64,000 nucleotides of DNA from an uncultured bacterium (GTDB lineage Bacteria; Krumholzibacteriota; Krumholzibacteriia; LZORAL124-64-63). The notes under the pieces are model-generated. The model saw nothing but the letters and a program-made list of their open reading frames with translations, made no database searches and was not told the origin of the DNA. Position 1 is the stretch's first letter; every line of letters begins with the position of its first letter. The stretch spans positions 130,870 through 194,869 of the forward strand of contig CAVYVY010000024.1 in assembly GCA_963772145.1 (NCBI GenBank), read 5' to 3'. The translations under genes were made by a program, and so were the position numbers. Positions 1 through 26,180 of the stretch are shown one piece after another.

Positions 1-2705
1 CGGAAGATCAGCAGCGTCAGCAGCGCGCCGAACAGCGCGAACGGCAGACCGGTCAGGATCGTGATCGGGTGGATGAAGCTCTCGTAGAGGATGCCCAGGA
101 TCATGTAGATGACGAGGATGGCCAGGATCAGCAGGGCCACCAGGCCGGCCTGCGAGGCCTTGAACGCCTGCGCGGTGCCGGCGAAACTCGTGACGATCGA
201 CGCCGGCAGCGTCTCGCGCGCGACCCGGTTGACGATCGCCACCGCCTCGCTCAGCGCCACCCCCTCGCCGAGGTTGAACGAGATCGTCACCGACGGCAGC
301 TGCCCGGAGTGGTTCACGGTGAGCGGGCCGAGCCCGGCTCGATCCGGGCGAGCGCGGACAGCGGCACCAGCGCGCCGTCCGCGGCGCGGACGTAGAGGCG
401 GGCGAGCGCCGCCGGATCGCGCTGGCACTCCGGCAGCAGTTCCATCATCACGTAGTACTGGTTGTTGGGCGCCAGGATGGTCGAGACCTGCCGCGTGCCG
501 AAGGCCGAGTAGAGCGCGTCCTCGATCGCCTGCGGCGTGACGCCGAGCGAGGCGGCGCGGTCGCGGTCGATGACCACGTCCACCTCGGGGTTGCTGCACG
601 CGCAGGTCGCTGTTGACGTCGCGCAGCTTCGACTCCTGCCGCAGCCGCGCCTCGAACGCGGGCGCGCCGGCGTAGAGCGCCGTCCAGGTCGGACGACTGC
701 ATGGTGAACTGGTAGAGTCCGGAGGCGAAGCGCCGCCGATGTTGATGGCCGGCGGGTTGATGATGAACACGCGGATGCCCGGGATCTTCGCCAGCTCGCG
801 CGCGCAGACTGCTCGACGACCTGGTCGGCGTTCAGCTCGCCGCTCCCCGCGCGGCTTCAGCCGCAGGAAGACCCGCCCCTGGTTGCCGGACGTGGTCGGC
901 CCGCCCGCCGCCCACGCTCGACATGAAGACCTCGATGTTCGGGTCCTGCGCGAGCACCGCGGCCACCGCCTGCTGGTGCGTCTTCATCGCCTCGAACGAC
1001 AGTCCCTCCGCCCCCTCCGTGGTCCCGGTCAGGAAGCCGGTGTCCTCGCTGGGGATGAAGCCCTTGGGGACGACGCGGAACAGGACCACGGTGCCGGCGA
1101 AGATCGCGCAGCGACAGCAGCACGTGGCGCGCCTTGCGCCGCATCGCCACGGCCAGCGTCCGCTCGTACAGCGCGAGGCCGCCACCCACGACCCGCTCGA
1201 TGCCGTCGTAGCAGCCGGTTGTGCTTCATCGTGCTGCGGGCGCAGGAAGCGGCTGCACATCATCGGCGTCAGCGACAGCGACACGAAGCCCGAGACCAGG
1301 ATCGCCGCCATGATGATGACCGCGAACTCCCGGAACAGGCGCCCCATGATCCCGCCCATGAACAGGATCGGGATGAACACCGCGGCCAGCGAGAGCGTCA
1401 TCGACACGATGGTGAAGCCGACCTCGCGCGCCCCGTCGACGGCGGCCGCGAACGGCGTCTTGCCCATCTCCATGTGCCGGAAGATGTTCTCCAGCATGAC
1501 GATGGCGTCGTCCACGACGAAGCCGACCGACAGCGTCAGGGCCATCAGCGACAGGTTGTCGAGGTTGTAGCCCAGCAGCGACATGACCGCGAAGGTGCCG
1601 ACGATCGACATCGGCAGGGCGAGGCTGGGGATCACCGTGGCCGAGACGTTGCGCAGGAACAGGAAGATCACCAGCACCACGAGGCAGAGCGTCAGCAGCA
1701 GGGTGAACTTGACGTCGCGGACCGACTCGCGGATCGGCTCGGCCCGGTCGAACAGCACGGTCAGCTGCGCGGAGGCCGGCAGCTGGCTCTGGAAGGTGGG
1801 CAGCAGCGCCTGCACCGCGCGCGACACCGCGACGGTGTTCGTGCCGGGCTGCCGCTGCACGGCCAGCATGATCGCGCGCTCGTCGTTGAACCAGCTCGCC
1901 ACCTTGTCGTTCTGGACGCTGTCGAAGACGCGGCCGAGGTCCTGCAGCCGCACCGGCGCGCCGTTGCGGTAGGCCACGACGATCGGCCGGTACTCCGCCG
2001 CCGTGTTCAGCTGGCCGGTGGCCCGCACGGTGTAGGCCTTCTCGGGGCCCCACAGCGTGCCGGTCGGCAGGTTGACGTTGTTCGCCTGGATCGCCGTGCA
2101 CGACCTCGTCGATGCCGATGCCGCGCGAGGCCAGCGCCTGCGGGTCGAGCTGGATGCGCACGGCGTACTTCTGCGAGCCGTAGACCTGCACCTGGGCCAC
2201 GCCGCTCACCATCGAGATGCGCTGCGCGATCAGCGTCTGCGCGTATTCGTCCACGTCCGACAGCGGCAGCGTCGGCGAGGTCAGGGCGATGAAGAGGATC
2301 GGCTGGTCGGCCGGGTTCACCTTCTGGTAGGACGGCGGCGACGGCATGTCGCGCGGCAGCTGCCGCTGCACCGCGGCGATGGCGGCCTGCACGTCCTGCG
2401 CGGCGGCGTCGATGTTGCGGTCCAGGCTGAACTGGATGGTGATCTGCGTGGAGCCCGAGGCCGCTCGTGGAGGTCATGTTGTCGATGCCGGCGATGGTGG
2501 AGAACTGCTTCTCCAGCGGCGTGGCCACCGCCGAGGCCATCGTTTCCGGGCTGGCGCCGGGCAGGCTCGCCGACACCGAGATGGTCGGGAAGTCCACGTT
2601 CGGCAGGTCGCTCACCGGCAGCAGCCGGTAGCCGATGACGCCCGCCACGAGGATGGCCAGCATGACCAGCGTCGTCATGACCGGCCGGCGGATGAAGAGG
2701 CTCAT
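1..2705 (-). CDS. RND (AcrB/HAE1-type) efflux pump inner-membrane subunit. The 3' end runs off the left edge and the frame is broken several times.
   Basis: The start at 2705 gives [44 protein letters not shown]. AcrB-like segments continue in ORFs 1226-2392, 832-2028 and 314-583, and in the left-edge frame (...[29 protein letters not shown]). There are at least 4 frame changes. Confidence 0.9.
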
Positions 2706-3883
2706 CGGCGGCCTCCCTGCGCCGGCCCGGCCGGCTTCACCTCCACGACCGCCCCCGGCACGAGCCGCATCTGCCCGTCGGTCACGACCGTCTCGCCGGC
2801 GCCCAGGCCGCCCGTCCACGACGGTGCAGTCCGTCGACGGTGCGGTTCACCTTCACGGCGCGCTTCTCGGCCTCGCCGATCCGCGCCGACGACGAAGACG
2901 AAGGTGCCCTCCTGGCCGGTCACGACGGCGGCGGCCGGCACGGTCAGCGCGGCCGGCTCGACCGTCAGCACCAGGTCCACGTCGACGAACTGGCCCGGCC
3001 AGAGCGCGCCGTCGTCGTTGGGGAACTCCGCCTTCAGCGTCACGGTGCCGGTGCCGGCGTCGACGGCGTTGTCCACGAAGACCAGCCGACCGGTCGAGCG
3101 CCTCGCCCGCGCCGTCGCGCGACGGCCGCGCCCGGACCGCGAGCGTGCCGCCGGCCGCGTACTTCTGCACCAGCGGCAGCTGGTCGCCCGGCGACGGCGA
3201 AGCTGACGCGGATCGGACTGCAGCTGGTTGACGACGACCAGCGGCGCGCCGTTGGCGCGCGACGACGTTGCCCTTCTTCACCAGGATGCTCCCGGTGCGA
3301 CCGGCCACGGGCGACGACACGGTGGCGTAGGCGAGGTTCAGCCTGGCCTGCTCCACCGCCGCCCGGTCGGCCTGCACGGCGGCCCGGAAGACGTCGGCCT
3401 GGGTGCGCACGGCGTCGGCCTGCTCGCGCGTCACGTAGTCCTTCGCCACCAGCCGCGCGTAGCGCGCGGCCTGGGCGTCGGCGTTGGCGGCCTGCGCCTC
3501 GTCGCGCGCGAGCTGGGCCTGCGCCGCCGCCAGCGCCGCCTGCAGCGGCCGCGGGTCGATCTGGAACAGCGGCTGGCCCGCCTTCGACGTCGGCGCCCTC
3601 CGTGAAGGCCACGGCCGTGATGACGCCGCCCACCTGCGGGCGGACCGCCACCGACTCGATCGGCTCGACCGTGCCGACCGCGTCCAGCAGCAGCGGCACC
3701 GGCTGGACCGTCGCGACGCCGGTCACGACCGGCACCGGCGGCGTTTTCGGCGGCCGGTTTCGCGCCGGTACGCCGCGAGGGCCAGCGCGGCGGCGAGCAG
3801 CGTCGGCAGGGGCGCGAGGCCGGCCCGGACGGGCGCGGCCGCCGCCGGTCCGCCGGCGCGGGGCGACCGGTCGTCGCCGTCAT
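2702..3883 (-). CDS. RND efflux membrane-fusion (periplasmic adaptor, HlyD/AcrA family) protein, frameshifted
   Basis: ATGA start/stop overlaps with both neighbours. MFP-like segments are spread over 4 ORFs: [41 protein letters not shown] (3040-3735), [62 protein letters not shown] (2853-3449) and [40 protein letters not shown] (2702-3076). Confidence 0.85.
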
Positions 3884-5376
3884 TTCTCCACCTCGGGGTG
3901 CAGGTTGTCGGGAGAGAGCGGATTCGCGCCGTGCAGGCCGAGCACGCCCGCGTCGCGGGCGAGCTGCGCCAGGGCGGTGAACCAGCCGAGCCGCGCGTTG
4001 ATCTGCTGGGCGCGCGCGGCGGCCAGCGCGCGCTGCGCCGAAAGCAGGTCCAGGACGTCGCCCACGCCCTCGCGGTAGCGTCCCAGCGCGACCTGCTCGG
4101 ACTCGCTGGCGCTGGCCAGCAGTTCGTCGGCCGTCTTCACGCGCTCGGTGGCGGTGAGGAAGTCGCTGTGCGCGGTGAAGACCTCGTAGATCACCTGCTG
4201 CTCGAAGCCGCGCGCCCGCTCGGCGGCGGCGTCGGCCTCGGCCCGCGCCCGCGCCAGGTCGTGGCGGCCCGAGAAGCCGGCGAACAGCGGGATGTTCAGC
4301 ACGAGCGCGCCGCTGGTGCGGTCGGCGGATCGTCCACGCCGTCGGTCCAGGTGCGGCCGGTCGAACCGCTCACCGACAGCGACGGCAGCAGGTCCGAGCG
4401 CGCGCTCTTCGCGCGGGCCGCGGCGGCCTGCGCCGGCGCGCTGCGCCGCCCGCAGGTCGGGTCGCGTGGCCACGGCCTGCGCGATCAGACTCCTCCACGG
4501 TGCGCGCCACCGCCGTCGACCGGGATGTCGGGCGTGCCGATCGCGATGTCGTACGGCACGTTCGCCGGGTAGCCCATCGACACGGCGAGCGCCCCCTTCG
4601 TGGTGCGCACCTGCCCCTCGGTGGTCTGCAGGTCCAGCTTGACCTGCGCGCGGGCCGTGCGCGCCTGCAGCACGTCGGCGATGGTGGCCAGGCCGACCTC
4701 GTGCCGCGCCTCGGCCGCGACGACGCTGCTCTCCGCCTCGGCGTACGACATCGCGGTTCGCCGCGAGGATCGCCTGCGCCCCGCCGTACCGGTAGAAGGC
4801 GGTCTCCACGGCGAGGATGGCGTCCTGGATGGACGGCGTTGTGCGTCCAGTCGGCCGCCAGCAGCGTCTGCTGCGCCGCCTCGACCCGCCCCCCGCGCCC
4901 GCCGAAGTCGAGCAGCAGCCACGACAGGCCGGCGGCCGGGCCGTAGGTCGTGGACCACGGCGCGGGACCCGCCGGCGGCGGCCGCTCGTCCGGGAGCTGG
5001 CGTTGCCGCGCGTGAGCGTGGCGGTGCCGTCGAGCGTCGGCAGGCGGCTGCCCCGCGCCGCGCCGTAGCCCGCCCGCCGCGGCCCTGGCGTCGGCCCAGG
5101 CCGCGCGCGTGGCCGGACTGTTGGCCAGCGCGATGTCCACCACCTCGGCCAGCGTGAGACGCGCCAGCCGGTCGGCCACCGCCTCGGGCGGGATGGCCGG
5201 GCCGACCGGCGCGCCGGCGACGACAGCGCGCGCCGGCGGTGTCCACGGCACGTCGGCCGACGGCGCCGTCCCGTCCACGCCGTCCACGCGGGGCGGGCTG
5301 CTCGCGCAGCCGGCGGCCAGCAGCGCGGCCAGCGCGACGCGCGCGCCGCGGCGCCGGGGCAGGTTCGTGGACTCAT
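3880..5376 (-). CDS. Outer-membrane efflux factor lipoprotein (TolC/NodT family), frameshifted
   Basis: A lipobox, VALAALLAAGCAS, lies near the N-terminus (frame of ORF 4370-6208). TolC-type repeats follow: LSWLLLDFGGRGGRVEAAQQTLLAADW, EARHEVGLATIADVLQARTARAQVKLDLQTTEGQ (ORF 4485-5246), and the C-terminal LVLNIPLFAGFSGRHDLARARAEAD...GDVLDLLSAQRALAAARAQQINARLGWFTALAQLARDAG (ORF 3880-5802). Confidence 0.85.
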   Translation of the reverse strand: MSPRTCPGAAARASRWPRCWPPAARAARPAWTAWTGRRRRPTCRGHRRRALSSPARRSARPSRPRRWPTGWRVSRWPRWWTSRWPTVRPRARPGPTPGPRRAGYGAARGSRLPTLDGTATLTRGNASSRTSGRRRRVPRRGPRPTARPPACRGCCSTSAGAGGGSRRRSRRCWRPTGRTTPSIQDAILAVETAFYRYGGAQAILAANRDVVRRGGEQRRRGRGAARGRPGHHRRRAAGAHGPRAGQAGPADHRGAGAHHEGGARRVDGLPGERAVRHRDRHARHPGRRRWRAPWRSLIAQAVATRPDLRAAQRAGAGRRGPREERALGPAAVAVGERFDRPHLDRRRGRSADRTSGALVLNIPLFAGFSGRHDLARARAEADAAAERARGFEQQVIYEVFTAHSDFLTATERVKTADELLASASESEQVALGRYREGVGDVLDLLSAQRALAAARAQQINARLGWFTALAQLARDAGVLGLHGANPLSPDNLHPEVEK

Positions 5377-12664: not shown

Positions 12665-15600
12665 TCACTTGAGCAGGGTCATCTTGCGGCTGAGCCTCTG
12701 CTCGCCCGCCTCGACCCGGTAGAAGTAGACGCCACTGGCGACGCGGGCGCCGCCGTCATCCCGACCGTCCCAACGCACTTCGTGCGTGCCGGGAGCGAGC
12801 CCGCCGGCCACGAGCGTCCGGATGAGCCGGCCGCCCGGGTCGTGCACCGTCACCAGCGCCGGCACCGTGGCGCCCGCCGGTCCGGCCAGGGCGAAGCGGA
12901 TCACGGTGGCCGGGTTGAACGGGTTCGGCCGGTTCTGCTCCATCAGGATCCGCAGGGCGGACGGCCCGTCGGCGCCGCCGTCCGCGCGCACCACCGTCCG
13001 CTCGTTCAGCCGGGCGAACGCCAGCGTCACGGCGGCGGCGGAACCGGCGGCGGCGGGATCGCCGACGTCGTCCACCAGTTCGAACTCCACCAGCGCCCCC
13101 GCGGGCAGCGGCTCGGCGGAGGCGAGCACGATCCTGACCTCGCCGTCGCGCGGCGCGCGCGTGAGGAAGCGGGCGGCGGCGGCGCCGGGCGCGGCGGCCA
13201 CCGCGACGATGCGCGCCCCCGCCCCGGCCCGCAGCACCAGCTCGGCCGACAGCAGCGGCGTCGTCCCGCTCCAGGCCACGGCGTGGCGGACCCCCTGGAC
13301 GCCTTCGCCCAGAGCTTCGAGGTGGACGGCGGCGTCCGCGGCGGACAGGTCGAGCGGCCGCTCGCCCGCCGCCCTGGTCACCACCGATTCGGACTCGCAC
13401 GGGAACCAGGTGGTCAGCCCCGCCACCAGCCGCAGGATGCAGGCGGCGTCGAGGGCGGTGACCCCCTCGGCGCAGGTGACGTCGGCCAGCCGCGCCTGCC
13501 CCGGCGTCAGCGCGAGCTCCCCGATGACCCCCTGCAGGACCAGCGCGGCGTCGTAGGCGGTGACCTCCGCGCTCTGCGAGACGTCGCCGAGCAGCAGCGG
13601 CTGGCTGCCGACGGCGAGCCAGGGGGCGTAGTCCACGCCGTCGGACACCGGGTCGCCCAGGCCGGCGCGGTTCAGCAGCCCGCCGGCGTAGCGGTCGTCG
13701 GAGATGTCGAACGGCCCGCTCGCGTGCCCCCACCAGCAGTCGGTGGCCCGGACCTGGTGCACGAGGCCGAGGTTCAGCACCGCGTACTCCGCGGTTGCCG
13801 AAGAAATCGCACCGCGCGAGCCCGCCCCGCAGCGGATCGCCCGCCGCCTCGCGGAAGACGATGCCCCGCGCGTTGTGGGCGAAGGTGCACGCCTCGAGCG
13901 TCGGGCTGCAGGTGCCGGTGACGTCGAGCGCCCCCTCGCCGGTGGCCGCGCCGGCGTAGCGGAAGACGCAGTTGCGCAGCGCGATCTCGCCCACCGCGGT
14001 CGTGCGCGCCAGCCGCACGCCGCCCCACGGCGCATCGTCCCCCGCGGAGTCGGCGCCGTCCCGGTTGGAGTCGCCGCCGTAGAAGTCGTCGGCCACCGAC
14101 GTGAACACGATCAGGCTGTCGGGCGAGGCGCCGCCCCGCGCCACCAGCGAATGGGCCACGGTCAGCGCACGCCCCGGCATGAACTTCAGCTTCAGCCCCG
14201 GCTCGAGCGTCAGGCTCACACCGACCCCCACGGCCAGATCCTCCAGGATCAGGTACGGCAGGTTCCGGCGCTGCGCGACGTCGCGTCCGCGCAGGACGCA
14301 GTCCCGCGCGAGGGTCTCGCCGAGCACGCCGATCCCCTCGTAGCCGTTCAGCAGGAACGTGTTGCCGCTCAGGACGGGATCGGCCATCAGCGACATGGCC
14401 AGAGCGACCCGGCCGCAGTGATCGACACGGCAGTCCTCGATCACCGGCCGCGAGCGCCCCTCGATCCGGATGCCATCGGCCTGCGCGGCGGTGATGGTCA
14501 CGGAGGAGAAGACGGGCGAGGCGTTGCGGACCGTCAGCGCCGTTTCGGTATCGCGCACGGTCACGTTGCGCAGGATCGATACGGCATCGTCGCTGGTATT
14601 CTCGAAGGTGATGCCGCGCCAGACCGCGCCGCCCGCCTTGTCGAGCAGGCCGAGCGGATCGAGACGCGTACAGATCGCAACCCGGCACGAACCGGCAGCG
14701 ATCGGTCCAGTCGTAGGGCTCGCCCGGCGTTCCAGGCCGGCAGATCCTCCCCCATCGAGCCCACTGATGACGATCGGGTTGTCGGGCGGGACGTCGGCAA
14801 CCAGCGCCCCCTGCACCAGGATGCCGCCCGGGCCGACTGCGAACTCCAGGCCGGCGGCTAGAGTGAGGGTGATGCCGAACGGCACGATCAGGTCGCCGAC
14901 CAGCCGGTCCACGACCGCCACCTCGCCGGTCAGCGCGGACGGCTCCAGCAGCGTATCCTGCGCCAACCGGCCGTCGTAGTCGCACAGCACCGGGATGACG
15001 TTGGCGCCAAAGGTGTTGTCGTGGATCTCGGCGGCGCCGGCCACCGCGGGCCGCCACGGCCCGTCCGACGGCCGGATGACCGCCGCCTTCGCCGCCGGTC
15101 CCGGCGAAGAACTCGGCGTGCAGGCCGATGAGGTTCCACTCGAAGAGGCAGTGGGTGATCGTGGGCGCCATGCCGCCGATCCGCACCACGCCGTCCGGAC
15201 CGTAGCCGCCGAAGGAGAAAATGCAGTGGTCGAGCAGGCTGGCCGCGGGATCGCAGGCGGGACGAACCGGATGCCGCCCCAGTCGCCCGGGCACGGGCCC
15301 GGCTCCCAGCCGTTCCCCTCGGTATCGCCCGGATTGCCGGCGCAGTCGTTGTGCACGCTCGTGAAGACGATCCGCCGGTCGTCGATCCCGGCGGCCACGA
15401 CGCTCCCCGTCACGTCGATCCCCGTGGCTGCCGGGGGCGAACTTGATCGTCACGCCCGGTTCGATGGCGAGGCTCCCGGCCACGTTCAGCCGCTCGTCCA
15501 CGTAGTAGCTGATGTCGGTGTGGCCGCCGATGTTGAGCTGCCGGATCAGGCCCCCGTCGGCCACGTCGCCCGCGAGGAGGCCGACCGCGGTGATGCCGTT

Positions 15601-16974
15601 GCCGAGGAAGACATTGTCCACCTGCGCCAGGCTCGTGCCGACCGCGATCTCCAGCGGCACGCCGCTGCAGGTCCGCACCTCGTTGCCGGTGAACTCGAGG
15701 CTGGTGTGGTCACCGGCGCGCAGTCCACGCCGACCGTCGGCGAGCACGCAGTCGCTCACGACGAGGTCGACCCGCTGCCCGGCCTCCACCAGCGCCGCGT
15801 CGCCGCCGAAGCGGACGCGGCAGGAGCGCAGCGCGCCGGAGCTCGAATCGGCGAAGACCAGCCCGCCCCAGTCCCCCGGCGCCGGGGCGGTGAGCGAGGC
15901 GTCGCGGTTCGTGTCCCAGGGACCGCCCGCGGCATCGTCGCGCACCGAGGTGAAAACGATGGCGCTGTCGGCGGACCCTTCCGCCTCGAGGCGTCCGTGC
16001 ACGGTGATGCCGGCGCCCGCGTCGATCGCCTTGAGCACCAGGCCCGGCTGCAGGCGCAGCGTGGCCTGCCGGCCGACCGTGATCGGGCCGAGCAGCACGT
16101 AGGTGACGTTCTCGACGAGGGTCGTACCGATCCGCGTGTCGCGCCGCGTCAGGCGCACGTTCTCCAGCAGCGTGCTCTCGAGCAGGCCGATGCCGTCGTA
16201 GCCGTTGTCCTGCTCGGAACCGAACACCACCGCGTCGAACACGGGATCACTGTCGGGGCTCAGAGCGAGCGGCACCGACAGGCAACCGTTGATCCGGACC
16301 CCACTCAGGCGCGGCGCGGCGCCCCGCCCGCAGACGACGCCGTAAGTGCCGGCGTTGAGCGACGACGCACCGATGCTCGGGCTCGCGCCGTCGCACGCGA
16401 TCAACGCACCCGCCTCGCCCCCGCCCCCGAACCAGACTTCGCAGTACTGCATCACGCTGGCGTCGCTGCCGCTGTCGGCGAAGGCGATCCCGTTCCAGTC
16501 GCCGGCGGCAGGATGCGTCGGCCCATCCTCCGGCAGGTCGCCGGCGAGGTTGTCGTCCCGCTCCGACGTGAAGAAGATCGAGTCCCCCGGCGCGCCGACC
16601 GCCAGCAGAGTGCCGCGCACCGTCAGCCCGGCCCCCGGCCGGAACTTGACCACGACCCCCGGCGCCAGCGTCAGCCGCGCCCCCTCGGCCACCTCGATCG
16701 GGACGTACACCAGGTAGATCCCGTCCACCCGCGGCCAGGTCGTGTCGGCGGCGATGTCGTGCCGGACCTCCACCACGGTCTGCCCCATGGCCGGCACGGC
16801 GATTCCCAGCAGCCCGCCCAGCGCGAGCAGGGCGAGCCCCCCCCGCGCCGCAGAGCCCGCTGCCCGGGACGGTTTCGCCCCGCCCGCCGGCAATTTCGTC
16901 CGCCCGCCGGTCGCCACGGGGCTGGGGCCGTTCGGAATCCACCAGGAGAGAACCGTTCGCATCGACATCATCAT
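12665..16974 (-). CDS. Giant (~1430 aa) secreted right-handed beta-helix repeat protein with dockerin-like repeat pair and FlgD-Ig/T9SS-type C-terminal domain, multiply frameshifted
   Basis: N-terminal signal/TM (GLALLALGGLLGIAVPAMGQT). Repeated modules of the form IVFTS..DD..GG..GDWGG+.F (ORFs 13774-17109 and 12756-15413). Dockerin-like GDVSQSAEVTAYDAALVLQGVIG...ADVTCAEGVTALDAACILRLVAG. C-terminus NRPNPFNPATVIRFAL...GVYFYRVEAGEQRLSRKMTLLK (ORF 12665-14035). Confidence 0.8.
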
Positions 16975-17209
16975 CGCCTCGCGGTTGAATTCGCGCGGCC
17001 GCGCCGGCTGCCCCGGCGGCCGCGGACTTCCCTGCATTCCTGACCAGCGCCTGACGCGGTTGTCGCGCCGGGGAAGGTGGGCGACCCCCGGCCGCGGCGC
17101 GTCACGCAAGGCACATGCCGATGCAGGAACATGAAAGGTGAAGTAATCGTAGCGATTTAGTGGGGATTAACAGTCGAACGTGGACGGCGCCGGCCGTCGG
17201 GCCGTTGGC

Positions 17210-17335: not shown

Positions 17336-18617
17336 ATGACGTCCGCTCCGCTCTCCCGCCGCCGTTTCCTGAAGGCCGCCGCCGGTTGCGGCCTCGCGCT
17401 TGCCGCCTCGCGCCTGCTTCCGGTCGCCCGGCTCGTCCTTTCCGCGCGCCGCCTCGCCGGCGTGCCGGGCCTGCCGGGCCTGCCGCGGCCGGCGCGCGCG
17501 GCCGGCGCAACGGCCGACGTGCTGCGCAACGCTCCGGTCGCCCGCTGGTGGGCAACCACGGCGCAGGCCGGCGTCGAGTGCGCGACCTGCCACCCGCCGG
17601 CCGAGCGGCCGCGCCGCCGCACCCGGCGCGCACCGGCACCACGCCGAGCTCGTGAAGTGCCTGCTCTGCGCGCGCGGCTGCGGCCTGAAGGAGGGCGAGC
17701 GCGGCGAGTGCGGCGCGCGCCTGGTGAAGGACGGGCGCCTGCTGAGCCTCACCTACGGCCGTCCCGTCGCCGTGCACGTCGACCCGATCGAGAAGAAGCC
17801 GTTCTACCACTTCCTGCCCGGAGCGCAGGCCTACTCGCTCGGGACGGCGGGCTGCCCGCTGCACTGCGAGTTCTGCCAGAACTGGGAGATGTCGCAGTCG
17901 CGCCCCGAGGACCACGCGGGGCCGTTCGTGCCGCCGGCCGAGCTGGTCGCGGCGGCCCGCCGGTCGGGCGCGCCGATCATCGCCTTCACCTACGACGAGC
18001 CGACCGTGTTCGCCGAGTACCTCATCGACGTCGCGCGCGCGGCGCGGCAGGCGGGCCTGCGCCCGGTGCTGGTCAGTTGCGGCTTCATGAACGAGGCGCC
18101 GCTGGCGGAGATGTGCGACGTCCTCGACGCGATCAAGATCGACCTCAAGGGCTACAGCGAGGAGTTCTACCGCAAGGTGTCGCACGCCGAGCTCGCGCCG
18201 GTGCTGCGCAGCATCCGGCAGGTGGCGCGACGCGGCGTGCACCTGGAGATCGTCAACCTCGTCGTGCCCACGCTCAACGACTCCGAGGCGATGCTGCAGG
18301 GACTCGCCGGCTGGCTCGTCGACGCGGTCGGGCCGGACGTGCCGGTGCACTTCACCCGCTTCCACCCCGACTACCGGCTGCAGAACCTGCCGCCGACGCC
18401 GGTCGAGACGCTCGAGCGGGCGCGCGCGATCGCGCTGGCGAAGGGGCTGCGCTACGTCTACGTCGGCAACGTGCCGGGCCACCCGGGCAACAACACCTGG
18501 TGCCCGCGCTGCGGCGCGCTCGTCATCCGGCGCTCCGGCTTCCTGATCGAGGAGATGCACGCGAAGGACGGCAGGTGCGCGCGCTGCGACGCGCCGATCG
18601 CGGGGGTGTGGTCATGA
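17336..18617 (+). CDS. AmmeMemoRadiSam-system radical SAM enzyme (PflA-like) with N-terminal twin-arginine signal extension, one frameshift near 17620-17650
   Basis: The N-terminus MTSAPLSRRRFLKAAAGCGLALAAS matches the Tat consensus. The core is VKCLLCARGCGLKEGERGECGARLVKDGRLLSLTYGRPVAVHVDPIEKKPFYHF...GCPLHCEFCQNWEMSQ (CxxxCxxC)...HFTRFHPDY. Memo and AMMECR1 follow immediately. Confidence 0.85.
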
Positions 18618-19560
18618 GGACAGGCGCGCGCGGGGCGGCGGGGACGGCGATCCTGATGCTCGGCGCGGCGATGGCCGCCGCGACCGCGGTCGCCCGGCGG
18701 GACGGAGCGGCCGCCGGCGGTGGCGGGCGGCTTCTACCCCGCCGACCGGACGGAGCTGGCGGCGCAGGTGCAGCGGTTCCTGGCGCAGGCGCAGGCGCCG
18801 ATCGGCGGCCGCCCGCTGGCGATCGTGGCACCGCACGCCGGCTACGCGTACTGCGGCCGCATCCTCGGCGAGGCGTGGCGGCAGGCGGCCGGGCAGGACT
18901 ACGACCTCGTCGTGATCCTCGGCACGAACCACCGCGTCGCCGGGCTGGACGCGCCGATCGTCTGGCCCGACGGCGCCTGGCGCACGCCGCTCGGCACGGT
19001 CGCGGTGGACGCGGCCGCGGCGCGCGCGCTGCTGGCGGCCGACCCCGAGTGCCGCTCCGCCACGGCGCCGCACGCGACCGAGCATTCGCTCGAGGTCCAG
19101 CTGCCGTTCGCGCAGACCGTGTTTCCGCGGCTGCCGATCCTGCCGGTGATGGTCGCGACCCAGGATCCGGCCAAGTGCGAGCGGCTCGGCCGCGCGCTGG
19201 CCGCCGCGCTGCGCGGCCGCCGTCCGCTGATCGTGGCCAGCAGCGACCTCTCGCACTACCCCGCCGCGGCCGACGCCGAGCGGATCGACCGCGCCACGCT
19301 GGCGGCGATCGCCGCGGCTCGACCCGGCCGCGCTGACGCGGGCGATCGACACCGCGATGCGCGGCGGCGTGCGCGAGCTGGCCACCTGCGCCTGCGGCGA
19401 GGCGCCGATCCGCGTCGCCCTGGCCGCGGCCGCGGCGCTCGGCGCGACGCGCGGCGTGGTCGTCGCCTACGCGAACTCGGCGCAGGCGCCGGGCGGCGAC
19501 CCGCTGCGCGTCGTCGGCTACGGCGCGGTCGCCTTCTTCGCCGGGCCGCCGCCCGCCCCG
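18614..19560 (+). CDS. Memo-like protein (AmmeMemoRadiSam system protein B) with Sec-type signal peptide. Frameshifted, and probably fused to the following AMMECR1 domain.
   Basis: ATGA overlap with the radical SAM stop. Signal peptide MRTGARGAAGTAILMLGAAMAAATAVA, then GGFYPADRTELAAQVQRFL...IVAPHAGYAYCG...EHSLEVQLPF...SSDLSHY...CGEAPIRVAL...VVGYGAVAFFAG, spread over three frames. Confidence 0.8.
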
Positions 19561-20128
19561 CCCCGACGCCGCGCCGCCGCTGTCGGCGGCCGACCGCGCC
19601 CTGCTGCTGCGGCTGGCGCGCGAGACGATCCGCCGCCACTTCGACGCCGGCGACGACGGCCCGGGACCGGAGTGCGCCACGCCGGCGCTCGCCGAGCCGC
19701 GCGGGGCGTTCGTCACCCTGAAGCGGGACGGCGCGCTGCGCGGCTGCATCGGGCACTTCGGGCAGGACCTGCCGCTCTGCCGGGTGGTGCGAGAGATGGC
19801 CGCGGCGGCCGCGTTCGAGGACCGGCGCTTCCCGCCGCTCTCGCGCGGCGAGCTCGCCGGGATCACCATCGAGATCTCCGCGCTCACCCCGCCCCGCGCG
19901 ATCGACGGCATCGCCGAGATCGTCCTCGGCCGCGACGGCGTGATCCTGCGCAAGGGGATGCGCTCGGCGGTCTTCCTGCCGCAGGTCGCGGTGGAGCAGG
20001 GCTGGGACCGCGACACCCTGCTGACGCAGCTCGCGCTGAAGGCGGGACTGCCGGGCGACGCCTGGCGCGAGGGGGCGGAGTTCCAGACCTTCCAGGCCGA
20101 GGTGTTCAGCGAGCCGGACCGCCGCTAG
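19561..20128 (+). CDS. AMMECR1 domain (AmmeMemoRadiSam system protein A), no independent start codon found
   Basis: LSAADRALLLRLARETIRRHF...LAEPRGAFVTLKRDGALRGCIGHF...AAAAFEDRRFPPLSRGEL..IEISALTPP...GMRSAVFLPQVAVEQGWD. This frame is open back to 19337 with no ATG/GTG. C4 runs at 19556-19559 and 19561-19564 mark the frame change from Memo. Confidence 0.8.
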
Positions 20129-20131
20129 GCC

Positions 20132-22267
20132 ATGGCCGCGCAACTGGTCGCGCTCGGCTTCCTCGCGCTGCTCGGGCAGGTCGTGCTGCTGCGCGAGGCG
20201 ACGGTGGCGGCGTACGGCAGCGAACTGGCGGTGGTGCTCGCGCTGGGGCTGTGGCTGCTCGGCGCCGCGGCCGGAGCCGCCGCCGGAGCGCGGCGGGCGC
20301 AACCATCGCCGGCGCTCGCGTCACGGCTGTTCGCGCTGGCCGGCGCGCTGATCCCGCTCGCCGTCGTCTGGTCGCGCGCGGCGCGGCCGCTGCTGGGCGG
20401 GGTGCGCGGCGGCGACCTGCCCTTCCCGCTGCAACTCGCTGGCGATGGCGGTGACTCTCGTGCCGGCCGCCGCGGCGGGCGGCGCCCTCTTCCCCGCGCT
20501 CGCCCGCCTCGCCGCCGCCGGCGGCTGCGGCGTCGCCCGCGCCTACGCCCTCGAGAGCGCCGGCGCCTTGCTCGGCGGGCTCGCCGCCGCCGCCGCGGCG
20601 CGGCTGGCCGTGCCGGGCCTGCTCCTGGCCCTCGCCTGCGCCGCGGCCGTCCCGCTCGCGCTGCTCGCGCGCAACCGTCGTGCGACGGCGGCCGGCGCCG
20701 CCGCGCTGCTCGCCCTGCTCGCCGCGCTCGCGCCACGCCTCGACCTCGCCACCACCGGCTGGACCCACCCCGGCCTGGTCGAGACCCGCGACACCCCCTA
20801 CGGCCGCCTCACGCTCGAGGAACACGCCGGGCAGGTCACCGTCTTCGTCAACGACGCGCTCGCCTACGAGACGCAGGGCCAGTCGTCCGCCGAGTTCGCC
20901 TCGCTCGCGGCGCTGCAGGCGGCCAACCCGGGGCGCGTGCTCGTGCTCGGCGGCGGCGCCTGCGGCCTGGTGCGCGAGCTGCTGCGCCACGGCCCGCGGG
21001 AAGTGACGGCGGTCGACCTCGACCCCGCCCTGCAGCGCGCCCTCGCCCCCCGCCTGCCGGCGGACCTGCGCGCCGCCCTGGCCGACCCGCGCGTGCGCGC
21101 GGTCACGGCCGACCCGCGCGCCTGGCTCGCCCGCGACGCCGGCGCCTGGGACCTCATCGTGATCGGCCTGCCCGAGCCGGCCTCGGGCGCCACGAACCGC
21201 TTCTATACGCAGGAATTCTTCGCGCTCTGCGCCGGGCGCCTCGCCCCCGGCGGCGCGCTGGCGCTGCGGCTGCCGGCGGCGGAGAACCTCTGGGCCCCGG
21301 CGCTGGTGAACCGCACCGCGAGCGTGGTTGCGGCGCTGCGCGCCGCCGGCATGGACGCGCTCGTGCTGCCGGGCGCCGCCGGCATCGTCGTCGCGGCGAA
21401 GGGAACGCTGCCGCGCGACCCGGAGCTGCTCGCCGCAAGGCTGACGGCGCGCGGCGCCTCCGGCCCCCTCGTCACGCCGGCCTACCTGCGCTACCTCTAC
21501 ACGAACGACCGGCTCGCCGGCGTCGCCGCGGAGCTCGCCGCCGCCAACGCCCCCGCCAACCGCGATGCGCGCCCGGTCTGCTACCCGTACACGCTGGCGC
21601 TCTGGCTGGCGAAGTTCTACCCCGCGCTCGCCCGCCTCGACCCGTCCGCCGCGACCGGGCCGCTCCGCGCGCTGTGGCCCGCGGCCGCGGTGGCGCTGGT
21701 GGCGCTGGTGCTCCTGAGTCGCCGCCTGCGTCGCCGGTCGGCGCTCGCCGTCGCCGCGGCCGGCGCCGCCGGCATGCTGATCGAGGCCCTCGCGCTGCTC
21801 GCCTTCCAGACCCGCCACGGCGCTCTCTACCGCGACCTCGGCCTGCTGCTCGCCGCCTTCATGGCCGGACTCGCCGCCGGCGCCCTGGCCGCCGACCGTC
21901 GCCGGTCGATCCCGCGCGCGGCGGGCGGACAATGGCCGCGCGGTGGCGCGCCGCCGCGCCGTCCGCCGCGCTCGCGCTCCTCGCCACCCTGCTCGCCCTG
22001 CGCCTGCGGGCCGGGGCGGCGCCCGGCCTGCCCGAAGCCTCGCTCTGGCTGGCATCAACGGGCGCGCTGACCGCCGCGGTCTTCGGCCTCGCCGCCCGCC
22101 GCGCATCGGCGCCGTCCCGCGCCGCCGGCCCCCTCTACGCCGCCGACCTGCTCGGCGGCTGCCTCGGCTCCCTGGCCGGCAGCCTGCTCCTCATCCCGCT
22201 CGCCGGCCTGCCCGCCACCGCTCTGGCGGCCGCCGCCCTCGCGCTCGCCGCGGCGGCGTGGAGCTGA
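20132..22267 (+). CDS. Membrane-embedded spermidine-synthase-like (polyamine aminopropyltransferase family) protein with N- and C-terminal TM bundles, two frameshifts
   Basis: It starts 3 nt after the AMMECR1 stop. The central part is TPYGRLTLEEHAGQVTVFVNDALAYETQGQS...RVLVLGGGACGLVRELLRHGPREVTAVDLDP...DLIVIGLPEPASGATNRFYTQEFF, flanked by Ala/Leu-rich TM helices (ORFs 20132-22267 and 20445-22070). Confidence 0.7.
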   Translation: MAAQLVALGFLALLGQVVLLREATVAAYGSELAVVLALGLWLLGAAAGAAAGARRAQPSPALASRLFALAGALIPLAVVWSRAARPLLGGVRGGDLPFPLQLAGDGGDSRAGRRGGRRPLPRARPPRRRRRLRRRPRLRPRERRRLARRARRRRRGAAGRAGPAPGPRLRRGRPARAARAQPSCDGGRRRRAARPARRARATPRPRHHRLDPPRPGRDPRHPLRPPHARGTRRAGHRLRQRRARLRDAGPVVRRVRLARGAAGGQPGARARARRRRLRPGARAAAPRPAGSDGGRPRPRPAARPRPPPAGGPARRPGRPARARGHGRPARLARPRRRRLGPHRDRPARAGLGRHEPLLYAGILRALRRAPRPRRRAGAAAAGGGEPLGPGAGEPHRERGCGAARRRHGRARAAGRRRHRRRGEGNAAARPGAARRKADGARRLRPPRHAGLPALPLHERPARRRRRGARRRQRPRQPRCAPGLLPVHAGALAGEVLPRARPPRPVRRDRAAPRAVARGRGGAGGAGAPESPPASPVGARRRRGRRRRHADRGPRAARLPDPPRRSLPRPRPAARRLHGRTRRRRPGRRPSPVDPARGGRTMAARWRAAAPSAALALLATLLALRLRAGAAPGLPEASLWLASTGALTAAVFGLAARRASAPSRAAGPLYAADLLGGCLGSLAGSLLLIPLAGLPATALAAAALALAAAAWS

Positions 22268-22344: not shown

Positions 22345-22830
22345 ATGAATCCGACCCTCGCCCCGCTGCTCGCCCAACTCAAGGTGAACGACTGGCTGTT
22401 CCGGCAGTCGATCGCGGATCTGACCGCCGCGGAGGCGGCGCGTTCGCCCGACGGGAAAATCAATTCACCGCAATGGGTGGCCGGCCACCTGGCCGCCACG
22501 CGCGCCGTGCTGGCACAACTGCTCGGACTGACGGAGGATCCGGCGCCGTTCGGCGGCGTCTTCAACCGGGGCGCGCCGTTCGACCCGGCGGCTGTCTACC
22601 CGCCGCTGGCCGAGATCACCGCGCTTTTCGCGGCACTCGGCGGGCGGATCCGCGAACGCGGGGAGACGATTCCCGACGCGGCGCTCGCCGCGCCCGCGCC
22701 GTTCAACCTGCCGATCGCCGACAAGACCATCCTCGGCGGCATCGCGTTCCTGTCGCTGCACGAGAGCTACCACGTCGGCCAGCTCGGCTACCTGCGCCGG
22801 CTGCTCGGGCACGGCCCGGCCACCGGCTGA
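22345..22830 (+). CDS. DinB-family (DinB_2) four-helix-bundle protein
   Basis: GGAGG RBS. NDWLFRQSIADLTAAEAARSP...SPQWVAGHLAATR...LSLHESYHVGQLGYLRRLLG. Intact, 161 aa. Confidence 0.75.
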   Translation: MNPTLAPLLAQLKVNDWLFRQSIADLTAAEAARSPDGKINSPQWVAGHLAATRAVLAQLLGLTEDPAPFGGVFNRGAPFDPAAVYPPLAEITALFAALGGRIRERGETIPDAALAAPAPFNLPIADKTILGGIAFLSLHESYHVGQLGYLRRLLGHGPATG

Positions 22831-23110
22831 GCGGAGCGAGAGCGCCGGACAGACGCGCACATCGGCCGGCTCTCACAGACAATCACGCCTGTTTGCGTCC
22901 AATATTGCGCCATTGACGCTTGATTGCCGATTCCTCTCCCGGTCCTGCCATAACCATGAAAAACCTCGGTGTCGTAGCGGAATTTCATGATTGGTTCATA
23001 AAATGTTTAATCATAGCCTTTTGCGCCGCTGCTCTGCGCCGGTTTTCGACCGTTTGTCGCTGATTTCCCGTTTCTTTCCTGGTAGGTGGGACCAGACCCC
23101 GCAGCAGCGC

Positions 23111-23250
23111 GACTTCAAGGGGGACAACCCGGCCACGCGGGTGACCAGGTTCCGCGAGGTCTCCAGGGGCCGCTTCCCGCAGCCAGCAGGCCGTGCTGTA
23201 GATCGCTCAGCGCTCCGCGACCGGCACTGTAGTCGACGCAACCGGCCAGT
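23111..23250 (+). pseudogene. Possible remnant of a tyrosine integrase N-terminal region
   Basis: FKGDNPATRVTRFREVSRGRF resembles the integrase pattern NPa..v+.f+e..r.RFL. The next frame reads SQQAVL.IAQ. It sits in a low-GC gap 2 kb from tRNA-Lys. This is a weak, pattern-level call only. Confidence 0.3.
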
Positions 23251-23413
23251 TCCTTGCCCCGGTCAGGCCCCAGCGTCGGGCCCTTTGCTATATCCTTTGC
23301 TAAATCCCTAAAATCCCGCGCGGTTCAGCAAACAGCCAAATCACTGTACCTGAATGACTTGCGTACGCGGCGCCCCTTCCGGGGCCGTTTCCCGGGCAGA
23401 TTCCTTTGCTCAA

Positions 23414-25096
23414 TCATCTCGCGTCGTCGCCATTGGCGACATCCGACATCACCCACTCGGAGCACGCTCGGGTGCCGCGATTGACGATTCTCCCAGCTCG
23501 TCGGAGCTCCTGCAGAAGGTTGTGGACCTTGCGGATCTTCTGCTCTTCGGTCAATCGATCGGGCAGCTTCGGCACGAGGGCCTGATTTACATCCTTGCGC
23601 TCAACCGGCCCGTGCTCTCGCACCAGGGCCACGATCAGGTCCAAGTAGTACCGCTTATCGAAACCGCGTTCCCGGATGTGCCGGCCGGCCTCTCCGGTCA
23701 CTTTGGCCACGGTTCCCGCGACCATGAGGCGCGGAAAGCGCCCCTCGACGAGCTCGGCGGTCTTCAGCCGACGGTGGTCTTCCCGCCCGATGGGCAGTCC
23801 CTTCTGCACCCGATCAAGAAGCATGACCTGCCCGAGATCGAGATCGGTCCGCTCCATCAGGAGTCGCGTATAGCGCTCGTCCAGGATCCGCCCGGTGAGG
23901 CTCACGGCCACGCGCTCCGGCTCGGCAAGATCGTAGTCCGGCAGCGGGAACGAGCGCCGCCGCTGCGTCTCGAACATGCGCTTTATGCCACCGCCCTGGG
24001 TGTCAATCAGGTTCAGCTCGACCATCGCATCGGCCAGAAACGGGTTGCGGTAGATGGCCTGCGGCGCGTTCTGCCGGATCACCGTCTCGACATCGCCCGG
24101 CAGGAAGTCACCGACATTGGTCACGAGCACGCGGTCAGGGAACTCGACCACGACGATGCGCCCGTGCCGGCGGTAGTCCTGGTGCGCGACACTGTTGTGC
24201 AGGGCCTCGCGGATCACCCAGGGGTCGTACTGCGTGATCTCCTGCGGGAAGAGGGTGCCGTTGGGCAGCGCGCGCACGATGAGGTTGCGGATGCGCTTCA
24301 ACAGACGATCGCCGGCGAGCAGAAACGGTGGACCGATGTGCTCGTAGTCCAACTCGCGGTTTTCAGCGTCCTTGAGGATCCACGAGATCCTCGCCACCGA
24401 GGGCGAGAGCAGAGTCGCCGACTCGCCACGCCCGAGCAGCAGGAGTGCGGCATTCGTGACCGCCCCCTGCTTCAACGCCCTGGCCTTGTCGAGGAAAGTG
24501 CGGTTCCCCCACCCGGCGATCTCGTCTGCACGACCCGGGTGCTTGACCGCGAATTGCTCGCGCGCCTTGGCCACGGCCTCCGGGTCGAGATCATCCAGGG
24601 ACGCCCGTTCGCACACCTCCGCCGACCAGTCGCTCCCGCGCGTCCAGAGCGCGCGTGCCTTCTCGGGATGCTTGCCGAGTTCGGTCTTGCTGGCACCAAC
24701 GCGCACGTAGGCCGTTCCGTGAAAGCAGACCGGCTGATCCTTCGCCGGGCCGACCTCGAACAGGACGACACGCCCGTCCGAATGTTCGAAGACGTGGACC
24801 TCGAATCCCGTGTTTGGGTGAAGTCCCGCCGCGAGCCAGGGCAACAGGTCCTGATTACCCTTGGCCTTCGTCACATAGGGATCAAAGCGCGTGCCGACGA
24901 CGTCGTGCGTCTCGTTGTCGATGCCGAAAGCCAGGTAACCTCGTGGTTGGCTTGACAGACATGCCGAGTTCGCAAGGGCAGACAGGTATTCGCCGAGCAC
25001 CTGAGGCTCGTACCAGTCATGCTTGAACTCAAACCACTCCCTTTCGGCCGGCAGAGCCCGCAGTCGGTCGATGAGCATGATGTGCTCTGTGCCCAT
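23414..25096 (-). CDS. AlbA_2 (Schlafen-like DNA-binding) domain plus ATPase-like domain plus C-terminal wHTH protein (often annotated as a RecG-like putative transcriptional regulator)
   Basis: ALPAEREWFEFKHDWYEP...YLSALANSA...GYLAFGIDNETHDVVG, then EALHNSVAHQDYRRHGRIVVVEFPDRVLVTNVG...RNPFLADAMVELNLIDTQGGGIKRM. The ORF is intact, in the lower-GC islet next to tRNA-Lys. Confidence 0.7.
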   Translation of the reverse strand: MGTEHIMLIDRLRALPAEREWFEFKHDWYEPQVLGEYLSALANSACLSSQPRGYLAFGIDNETHDVVGTRFDPYVTKAKGNQDLLPWLAAGLHPNTGFEVHVFEHSDGRVVLFEVGPAKDQPVCFHGTAYVRVGASKTELGKHPEKARALWTRGSDWSAEVCERASLDDLDPEAVAKAREQFAVKHPGRADEIAGWGNRTFLDKARALKQGAVTNAALLLLGRGESATLLSPSVARISWILKDAENRELDYEHIGPPFLLAGDRLLKRIRNLIVRALPNGTLFPQEITQYDPWVIREALHNSVAHQDYRRHGRIVVVEFPDRVLVTNVGDFLPGDVETVIRQNAPQAIYRNPFLADAMVELNLIDTQGGGIKRMFETQRRRSFPLPDYDLAEPERVAVSLTGRILDERYTRLLMERTDLDLGQVMLLDRVQKGLPIGREDHRRLKTAELVEGRFPRLMVAGTVAKVTGEAGRHIRERGFDKRYYLDLIVALVREHGPVERKDVNQALVPKLPDRLTEEQKIRKVHNLLQELRRAGRIVNRGTRACSEWVMSDVANGDDAR

Positions 25097-25311
25097 AAGC
25101 TGCTTTGTCGGGGCAGCCGCAGCCTGCCCCTCCCCCTGATCGAGGGACTTGTTTGAGCCGATGGCTTCGGGGACGGAGGGCGAGACCATCCAGACCGCGC
25201 GGGCGCCACCGTATTCGCGCGAGCACAGGCCAGCTTGCATCTTAGCAGCCATGCGGATCGCGGATCAACCCGGCAATGGCTTGGTATCGGAGAGTCGCTG
25301 ATCGTGTAAGT

Positions 25312-25508: not shown

Positions 25509-26180
25509 GTGACGGCGGACGGTACCGGGGCGACCCGGGTGCTCGATCTGGCGACCCGCAAGCGGCGGGCGAAGATCGTCGTGCGGTTACTGCGGAAGGA
25601 ATTTCCCGACGCGGCCTGCTCGCTCGACCATCGGGATGCGTTCCAACTGCTGGTGGCGACCATCCTCTCGGCCCAGTGCACCGATGCGCGGGTCAATCTG
25701 GTGACGCCGGGGCTGTTTCGGCAGTTCCCCTCGCCTCGCGATTTTGCCGAGGCGCCGCTTGCCGAAATCGAGGAGGCGATCCGCTCCACCGGGTTCTTCC
25801 ACAACAAGGCGAAGGCGCTGCAGGGGTGCGCTCGCGCCTTGATCGAGCGGCATGGCGGAGAGGTGCCACGCACGATGGACGAACTGCGGGTGCTGCCTGG
25901 TGTAGGGCGTAAGACGGCGAACGTCGTGCTCGGGGACGCGTTTGGCTCGCCCGACGGGGTCGTGGTCGACACGCATGTGGGGCGGATCGCGCGGAAGCTC
26001 GGGCTGACCGGGGAGCAGGATCCGGAGAAGGTGGAGCGGGATCTCAGCGGCTGCGTCCCCCGCACTGACTGGGTGGCGGTCGGACACCTGCTGATCGAGC
26101 ACGGGCGGCGGACCTGCCGGGCGCGGGCGCCGCGGTGCGACGGGTGTCCGTTGTATGCGGAGTGCGAAGCGCGGGGCTGA
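25509..26180 (+). CDS. nth: Endonuclease III (DNA glycosylase/AP lyase)
   Basis: [24 protein letters not shown]...[13 protein letters not shown]...[15 protein letters not shown]...[17 protein letters not shown] (the FeS cluster loop). Intact. Confidence 0.9.

Follow-up and report, generated by a model that had tools for sequence, protein, structure and literature searches.

Gene content of the locus

The stretch of DNA considered here (the window) comprises 64,000 nucleotides from an uncultured bacterium of the Krumholzibacteriota (assembly GCA_963772145.1, contig CAVYVY010000024.1, positions 130,870 to 194,869), and its positions 17336-22267 hold a version of the AmmeMemoRadiSam system, the trio of a radical S-adenosylmethionine (SAM) enzyme, Memo and AMMECR1. 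This trio is conserved from archaea to humans, and human AMMECR1 and MEMO1 are linked to disease; to our knowledge, it has been assigned neither a function nor a substrate. Once the frames are corrected, the region is an operon of three open reading frames (ORFs) that encode a radical SAM enzyme, a Memo-AMMECR1 fusion and a membrane protein of 14 transmembrane (TM) helices with a domain resembling spermidine synthase (SpeE). Its features are the following:

17336-18617, + strand: radical SAM enzyme, AmrS type (TIGR04337, 372.7 bits; cut-off 220)
17336-17500, + strand: predicted twin-arginine signal peptide, with SRRRFLK at 17354-17374 followed by the hydrophobic stretch AAAGCGLALAASRLLPVA and a basic c-region
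17540-17636, + strand: inserted module ARWW-x9-CATCH...H, with ARWW at 17540-17551 and CATCH at 17579-17593
17655-17711, + strand: KCLLCARGC...GERGEC, the N-terminal C-x2-C-x3-C-x9-C region of the family (motif position)
17853-17876, + strand: radical SAM cluster motif CPLHCEFC (CxxxCxxC; motif position)
18614-20128, + strand: Memo-AMMECR1 fusion, AmrB-AmrA (TIGR04336 and TIGR04335 matches)
18614-18694, + strand: predicted Sec-type signal peptide or signal anchor MRTGARGAAGTAILMLGAAMAAATAVA
19736-19831, + strand: predicted active-site motifs of AMMECR1, LRGCIG (RGChG) at 19736-19753 and EDRRF (DxRa) at 19817-19831
20132-22267, + strand: 14-TM membrane protein with a central SpeE-fold domain (frame breaks at 20440 and 21901)
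20760-21560, + strand: SpeE-like Rossmann domain, predicted periplasmic, with LGGGACG at 20946-20966 and GLPEP at 21165-21179 in place of D-x-x-D-P

The distribution of this gene set was surveyed with an alignment of the SpeE-like protein as query and one genome per species, which gave at least 586 relatives; the counts for linked loci reported below, as distinct from those among close relatives, come from the best 80 loci. A first-pass annotation of the window, made from the sequence alone, had described the trio as contiguous and translationally coupled, and this is borne out: an ATGA at 18614-18617 makes the start of the fusion overlap the stop of the radical SAM gene (TGA, 18615-18617). 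Its reading of Memo and AMMECR1 as separate genes does not hold, since the two form a single fused ORF, as they do at 62 of 67 loci. The next gene was correctly placed 3 nt beyond the AMMECR1 stop, here the stop of the fusion (TAG, 20126-20128), within TAG-GCC-ATG at 20126-20134 (3-4 nt when the orthologue is included). The motifs picked out in the radical SAM enzyme, namely SRRRFLK, the ARWW...CATCH extension and KCLLCARGC...GERGEC, are also found in place in the frame-corrected reading.

Frame breaks in the window and intact relatives

The region has a G+C content of 75-80%, at which the G+C content at third codon positions (GC3) is a sharp indicator of the coding frame; in a frame plot, GC3, at 0.9-1.0, follows one path through 17336-22267 with at least six changes of frame. 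The path was read from GC3 plots together with three-frame translation, frame being the coordinate modulo 3. The radical SAM gene lies in frame 2 from 17336 to ~17600 and then in frame 0 up to 18617, with the break at ~17596-17636. The fusion runs in frame 2 from 18614, in frame 0 from ~18700 (where ...RPPAVAGGFYP... is read), in frame 1 from ~19316 and in frame 2 from ~19556 to 20128, and the SpeE-like gene runs in frame 2 from 20132, in frame 0 from 20440 and in frame 2 from 21901 to 22267. No in-frame stop interrupts the corrected path, and the shifted frames keep a GC3 of 0.9-1.0.

Intact versions of the three genes are found in a genome of the same genus (G001, isolate label MFD04716.bin.1.312; named related records are labelled Candidatus Eisenbacteria), where each occupies one open frame (locus L021; 428, 518 and 711 amino acids). 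The proteins of the window are 92-95% identical to the intact same-genus orthologues. When the window genome (G000) is aligned with G001 and with a second genome of the genus, G002, G000 alone shows the single-base differences at 19316, 20440 and 21901, three variable linkers of the window differ from both relatives by net lengths that are not multiples of three, and the indels of the window are missing from both. The G000 assembly consists of 36 contigs with an estimated completeness of 62.65%, against 92-95% for the same-genus relatives, and the other TIGR04337 gene of G000, which lies on a different contig, is likewise broken across three frames. Because of this low completeness, the equally split paralogue and the absence of the indels from G001 and G002, the frame breaks of the window are most likely assembly errors. 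Small indels are a general trait of the G000 assembly, as at G000:C29:63764-64615.

The radical SAM enzyme and its twin-arginine leader

The first-pass annotation had proposed that the radical SAM enzyme carries a signal for the twin-arginine translocation (Tat) pathway, and had named as the outcome that would speak against it a motif lying out of frame or in a separate upstream ORF. Neither is the case. A single ORF of 428 amino acids in G001 (L021:2693-3979; TIGR04337, 363.1 bits) contains the Tat leader together with the CxxCH extension and the radical SAM core, and in each of 13 orthologues taken from related genera and families the double-arginine (RR) motif stands in frame at the N-terminus. 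The survey of homologues for Tat signals that had been called for gives the same picture on a larger scale, with the RR motif in all 62 linked radical SAM enzymes that have an assessable N-terminus, from many phyla. A hydrophobic stretch follows the motif in every orthologue. In an alignment of 27 long-form homologues, both arginines (R8 and R9) are invariant, and so are W69, C79-x2-C82-H83, H103, the four N-terminal cysteines of the family, those of the CxxxCxxC motif (C175, C179 and C182) and four C-terminal cysteines. The Tat signal model TIGR01409 recognises the leader of the window (18.7 bits; cut-off 16.7), and a TatC gene (PF00902, 216 bits) is present in the same genome at G000:C25:114940-115563. 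With the motif, the hydrophobic stretch and TatC all found, the enzyme looks, by its sequence, like a Tat substrate.

A protein search with the intact orthologue gave, among its best 120 matches, only long forms of ~400-450 amino acids, from Deltaproteobacteria, Syntrophales, Acidobacteria, Zixibacteria and Planctomycetota; those named by their source are labelled as AmmeMemoRadiSam system radical SAM enzyme or as pyruvate formate lyase activating enzyme. Identity with other predicted exported versions across phyla is 60-69%. In the structural model (pLDDT 79), residues 8-26 form a leader helix and residues 28-56 a disordered spacer, and the ARWW...CATCH segment is placed with confidence, the insert itself being modelled at pLDDT 75-90. 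Its core fold is nearest to the pyruvate formate-lyase activating enzyme (PFL-AE; 3cb8, TM-score 0.80), and there are weak matches to related NCBIfam models. This is the best structural match of the radical SAM core, which ties it to the activases of glycyl-radical enzymes; these, however, are cytoplasmic, lack a Tat leader and the N- and C-terminal cysteine motifs, and have a glycyl-radical enzyme as their target. In its leader, the enzyme resembles Fe-S Tat substrates (hydrogenase small subunits and NapA-type enzymes) and the remnant found in NarG, in which S/T-R-R-x-F-L-K likewise precedes a cofactor-containing enzyme. In the literature searched, no radical SAM enzyme was found to be described as exported or as carried by the Tat pathway.

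The CxxCH...H module is inserted between the N-terminal A-R-Y-W motif of the family and its C-x2-C-x3-C-x9-C motif. CxxCH occurs in 39 of the 62 linked enzymes, and the insert is missing from 23 of them, the Smithella clade being without it, so that it is not essential to the system. Because relatives without the insert read ARYW-x10-C-x-L-C-P-H-x-C, the module may be a partial duplication of the C-x-L-C-P-H motif of the family. It could be a haem c site or a site for another metal; actual binding of haem we regard as possible, if on the doubtful side. The module shares with monohaem c-type cytochromes an invariant CxxCH with an invariant downstream histidine, a predicted extracytoplasmic location of the protein and the presence of assembly genes in the genome, but it differs from them in its predicted Tat instead of Sec route, in its shortness and in its absence from the 23 linked enzymes. 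The cytochrome c assembly family PF01578 is found in all 50 genomes examined for it, 29 with CxxCH and 21 without, so its occurrence is alike in both groups.

The Memo-AMMECR1 fusion

In the window, the Memo part of the second ORF is matched by TIGR04336 in two frame pieces (203.5 and 33.8 bits; cut-off 26) and the AMMECR1 part by TIGR04335 (179.8 bits; cut-off 99). The intact fusion of G001 (L021:3976-5529, 518 amino acids) scores 234 bits with TIGR04336, against the same cut-off of 26, and contains PF01875 at residues 38-308 and PF01871 at residues 346-512. The His, Asp and Cys positions of Memo are kept, as are the RGChG and DxRa motifs of AMMECR1 defined by Balaji and Aravind (2007, PMC2034487). 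Because the two domains are fused in relatives, and because frame 2 of the window offers no start codon from 19337 to 19784, AMMECR1 is predicted to be exported within the fusion.

The Sec-type leader that the first-pass annotation had seen on Memo, MRTGARGAAGTAILMLGAAMAAATAVA, is indeed there, and it recurs: in all 12 relatives examined the fusion starts with a basic and then a hydrophobic segment, conserved as a feature and not in sequence, and 61 of 65 loci have a strongly hydrophobic, signal-like Memo N-terminus. Of the four leader-less exceptions, two are additional genes for Memo alone, and in both cases a leader-bearing fusion comes next. About 35 of 59 leaders end in a lipobox-like ..[AGS]C under a loose pattern, and in many other lineages the leader of the fusion looks like that of a lipoprotein. 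In two other Eisenbacteria (L077:3514-4442 and L085:5416-6344), an extra, leader-less Memo-only gene separates the radical SAM gene, of the Tat type, from the fusion with its leader, and starts a few bases from the radical SAM stop; its product could be exported as a Tat hitchhiker.

A membrane protein with a SpeE-like domain

The last gene of the operon had been described as encoding a polytopic membrane protein with a central spermidine-synthase fold, a description that structure prediction confirms. The AlphaFold (AF2) model of the intact 711-amino-acid orthologue (P0121, L021:5536-7671; pLDDT 88.9, pTM 0.90) has seven TM helices, a domain at residues 215-470 and seven further TM helices. 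Foldseek finds in the domain the full SpeE fold, that is, the N-terminal beta domain plus the Rossmann domain (1uir, 3anx and 1jq3; TM-score ~0.7, E = 1e-10); with the whole model as query, the top 50 matches are solely SpeE structures, which place the membrane domain in no class. Over 25 aligned sequences, the lysines and arginines (K+R) of the short loops number 16.6 on the N-terminal side versus 5.9 on the domain side. The loops ahead of helix 7 and past helix 8 are both basic, with a mean of 3.8 K+R in 10 residues for the loop after TM8. On account of the AlphaFold model and of this distribution, read with the positive-inside rule, the SpeE-like domain is predicted to face the periplasm.

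Within the family of SpeE-like proteins, GGGxxG, an acidic residue after strand 2 (E295), D327-P328-R329 and D340 are kept. The catalytic D-x-x-D-P is replaced by G-(M/L)-P-E-P, with G-M-P-E-P as the family consensus, so that the catalytic Asp has become Gly. In an alignment to the Thermus SpeE, IGLPEP stands opposite IDLTDP and GGGACG opposite GGGEGA, the Asp/Glu of GGG(D/E)G being gone as well. In SpeE, the first catalytic Asp deprotonates the amine acceptor, and the Asp of GGGDG favours decarboxylated SAM over SAM. Because both acidic positions are lost while the nucleotide-binding motifs are kept, we think that the domain binds an adenosyl ligand (SAM or 5'-deoxyadenosine) and makes no polyamine. 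PF01564 matches the protein, which falls far below the cut-offs of all curated SpeE models (PRK03612, 105.7 versus 472; PRK00811, 62.2 versus 260; TIGR00417, 46.7 versus 249.55). The window gene itself likewise gives no more than a weak PRK03612 match.

The known polyamine aminopropyltransferases of the PRK03612 type resemble this protein in their N-terminal helices and SpeE fold, which align to positions 55-439 of the model, and in the Rossmann fold and GGG motif; by contrast, the protein studied here has a second block of seven helices after the domain, G-M/L-P-E-P, no Asp of the GGGDG type and a domain predicted to face outward. Fusions of a major facilitator superfamily (MFS) protein with spermidine synthase exist among membrane-linked SpeE homologues. 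In P0121, a weak internal repeat relates residues 113-156 to 644-687 (window ~20470-20600 and ~22060-22190), that is, TM4-5 to TM12-13, with AYAIESAGG in TM5 resembling LYAADLxGG in TM13 (hhalign E = 0.0015, probability 17%). As a lead only, this suggests two parallel six-helix halves in an MFS-like layout, on either side of an inserted unit of TM7, the domain and TM8. A transporter fold with an inverted repeat was also considered, and was dropped in favour of the parallel repeat, itself weakly supported.

Conservation of the cassette and its signal-less paralogues

The best 80 loci come from Eisenbacteria, Syntrophales/Smithella, Acidobacteriota, Bacteroidota, Ignavibacteria, Calditrichota, KSB1, Kryptonia, Marinimicrobia, Fibrobacterota and others, so that the cassette spans at least 10 phylum-level lineages. 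The first-pass annotation had asked whether the SpeE-like neighbour accompanies the trio in other genomes. It does so almost always: the genes for the radical SAM enzyme, Memo and AMMECR1 lie immediately upstream and on the same strand at 57 of the 59 SpeE-like loci that have at least 3.3 kb of upstream flank and, seen from the other side, the SpeE-like gene is present at 10 of 12 Tat-type loci among relatives (7 on the same strand and 3 adjacent on the opposite strand). Clustering of the ORFs within 5 kb of the 80 loci brought out no other conserved neighbour, be it an electron carrier or a transporter; the largest neighbour cluster, an unrelated ABC ATPase, covers 7 loci only. One Tat-type locus of a relative (L028, G012:C25:36200-46800, at ~1167-4781) contains a DUF362 protein, a radical SAM enzyme whose leader reads DRRSFLG and a divergent Memo-like protein, with no match to AMMECR1 or to the SpeE-like protein.

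The same genomes also hold versions of these proteins without signals. A signal-less TIGR04337 paralogue, ~47% identical to the predicted exported enzyme, is found at G001:C7:1388287-1389216 (L115) and G000:C29:63764-64615; it has no leader and begins with MVTHVAAWW at the N-terminal motif of the family. In G001, it adjoins a queG-like Fe-S gene, a neighbour that fits a cytoplasmic, nucleic-acid-related context, and neither Memo nor AMMECR1 occurs within ~5 kb of it. A second Memo-AMMECR1 fusion, which is leader-less and begins MLKIRAPVLAGTWYP, lies on a separate contig, unlinked to either radical SAM gene (G000:C26:248539-249999; G001:C8:102182-103633, L118). The presence of these unlinked, signal-less paralogues in the same genomes shows that the export signals are specific additions.

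Proposed location and mechanism

The genes share with the canonical AmmeMemoRadiSam system (TIGR04335, TIGR04336 and TIGR04337) three families that score over their cut-offs and are adjacent and translationally coupled, and they keep its CxxxCxxC, its C-x2-C-x3-C-x9-C, the RGChG and DxRa motifs of AMMECR1 and the His, Asp and Cys positions of Memo. They differ from it by the Tat leader, the Sec leader on the fusion, the CxxCH...H insert and an obligate 14-TM SpeE-like partner. Canonical members are implicitly soluble and cytoplasmic, unlike the proteins described here with their two leaders and membrane partner. We thus regard the locus as a widespread new variant of a known, uncharacterised system, for which no published description of an exported form was found. 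More specifically, we hold it fairly probable that this is an extracytoplasmic variant of the AmmeMemoRadiSam system, a three-ORF operon that is broken here by indels. Every part of the trio operon appears to carry a conserved export or membrane signal, and the chemistry probably runs outside the inner membrane; the idea of action at or across the membrane, at which the first-pass annotation had hinted, gains in silico support from the conserved in-frame Tat motif and the co-occurrence of the SpeE-like gene. The export, the supply of SAM and electrons, and the substrate are what we infer from the features above.

In the mechanism that we propose, the Tat pathway would export the radical SAM enzyme folded and with its Fe-S clusters in place, and the Sec pathway would export the Memo-AMMECR1 fusion. 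At the outer face of the inner membrane, both would dock on the outward SpeE-like domain, and the trio would modify a membrane-embedded or envelope substrate, and not RNA. There, the radical SAM enzyme would abstract a hydrogen, and the metal site of Memo and the cysteine of the AMMECR1 motif RGCIG would finish the reaction. The two six-helix halves of the partner, with their transporter-like arrangement, would most likely supply or recycle the adenosyl cofactor across the membrane, and the CxxCH...H insert may be the electron entry point in the subclade that has it. A stronger form of this proposal is a self-sufficient periplasmic radical SAM system, in which Tat export is combined with electron entry through a covalent haem c, or another redox metal, on the CxxCH...H insert, with SAM fed by the partner and with a lipid or envelope substrate; the MFS-like halves of the 14-helix protein would then deliver SAM to the enzyme and clear it of 5'-deoxyadenosine, and the SpeE-like domain would hand over the cofactor. 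We consider this stronger form unlikely.

Several observations weigh against an extracytoplasmic location. The assignment is based on motifs, hydropathy and the positive-inside rule. We know of no SAM and no low-potential reductants in the periplasm, and the operon has no recognisable electron carrier. As for the leader, PF10518 gives 21.8 bits, slightly below its cut-off of 22.7, and TIGR01409 passes in 5 of the 10 orthologue leaders tested and misses the other 5. The insert is lacking in the 23 linked enzymes mentioned above, and the attachment of haem to a Tat substrate would be unusual. The transporter reading depends on the weak repeat, and the membrane halves match no transporter family in Pfam or NCBIfam.

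Some of these points would suit an RR leader that is vestigial, like the NarG remnant, and that is used as a handle by chaperones or for proofreading, or tethers the protein to the membrane, while the enzyme itself is kept at the cytoplasmic face. Such an enzyme would have at hand the SAM and the low-potential donor that its chemistry needs, and the lack of an electron carrier in the operon and the failure of TIGR01409 on half of the tested leaders also speak for this reading. Nevertheless, neither arginine varies, a hydrophobic stretch comes after them in every orthologue, the positive n-region ahead of that stretch favours an N-in, C-out orientation, the partner fusion independently has Sec or lipoprotein-like leaders, the SpeE-like domain is predicted to face outward, and leader-less cytoplasmic paralogues share the same genomes; a vestigial leader thus seems improbable to us. 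We give a similarly small chance to an enzyme that is exported without any turnover of SAM outside, be it an activase of its partner that carries one bound SAM and acts a single time, an enzyme that uses SAM catalytically like lysine 2,3-aminomutase or no more than an Fe-S redox protein, with the SpeE-like protein as a scaffold or substrate presenter instead of a source of cofactor. That the Tat pathway carries folded, cofactor-loaded proteins, that the nearest structures are glycyl-radical activases, which act on proteins, and that the membrane halves match no transporter family are all in its favour, but the cassette encodes no target of the glycyl-radical type, and the strongly conserved adenosyl-binding motifs of an outward domain are hard to explain without a nucleoside ligand outside.

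Two further alternatives concern the genes themselves. A total of six or more net frame shifts within 5 kb would fit a window copy that is a decayed pseudogene cluster, whose frame-corrected proteins do not exist in the host organism. This is very unlikely given the GC3 of 0.9-1.0 in the shifted frames, the stop-free corrected path, the 92-95% protein identity to intact same-genus orthologues, the private single-base differences at 19316, 20440 and 21901, and a defect that extends over the assembly, with its 62.65% completeness and a paralogue in three frames. Least likely of all, to the point of being hardly credible, is an ordinary membrane-anchored polyamine aminopropyltransferase that happens to be adjacent to the trio: the match to PF01564 and the name spermidine synthase given to relatives by the Joint Genome Institute (JGI) would agree with it, but not the scores far under every curated SpeE cut-off, the replaced catalytic Asp, the near-obligate linkage to the trio (57 of 59 loci) or a start codon 3-4 nt past the fusion stop.

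The extracytoplasmic reading bears on two open questions, the substrate of the trio and radical SAM chemistry outside the cytoplasm. The main published proposal for AMMECR1 is the modification of RNA bases (PMC2034487), and a later eLife paper merely refers to Memo-Ammecr1 systems (PMC7159879). If all the catalytic domains lie outside the cytoplasmic membrane, as predicted, this paralogous version cannot act on RNA, which would narrow the chemistry of the trio to one that is also possible on a lipid or envelope molecule. In a 2019 study of the Memo superfamily in J Biol Chem, Burroughs et al. are said to have tied Memo contexts to the modification of nucleotide bases and isoprenoids. For radical SAM enzymology, the locus raises the question of how SAM and a low-potential electron are delivered to an enzyme outside the cytoplasm. 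An obvious candidate for this role is the membrane partner with its SpeE-like domain, which provides an experimental handle as well.

Neighbouring genes in the window

Upstream of the operon, on the opposite strand, positions 12665-17109 encode a large secreted-type protein with right-handed beta-helix repeats and a C-terminal sorting domain of the FlgD_ig or type IX secretion system (T9SS)-like kind; this gene is also frame-broken and spread across three frames. Immediately downstream lies a gene for a DinB_2 family protein (22345-22830) and, farther on, one for endonuclease III (HhH-GPD; 25509-26180), neither of which is conserved beside the cassette elsewhere. Between them, at 22860-25311, the G+C content falls from ~78% to 61-65% in what looks like a foreign islet, which carries an intact gene of 612 amino acids with Schlafen/AlbA_2 and HATPase_c_4 domains.

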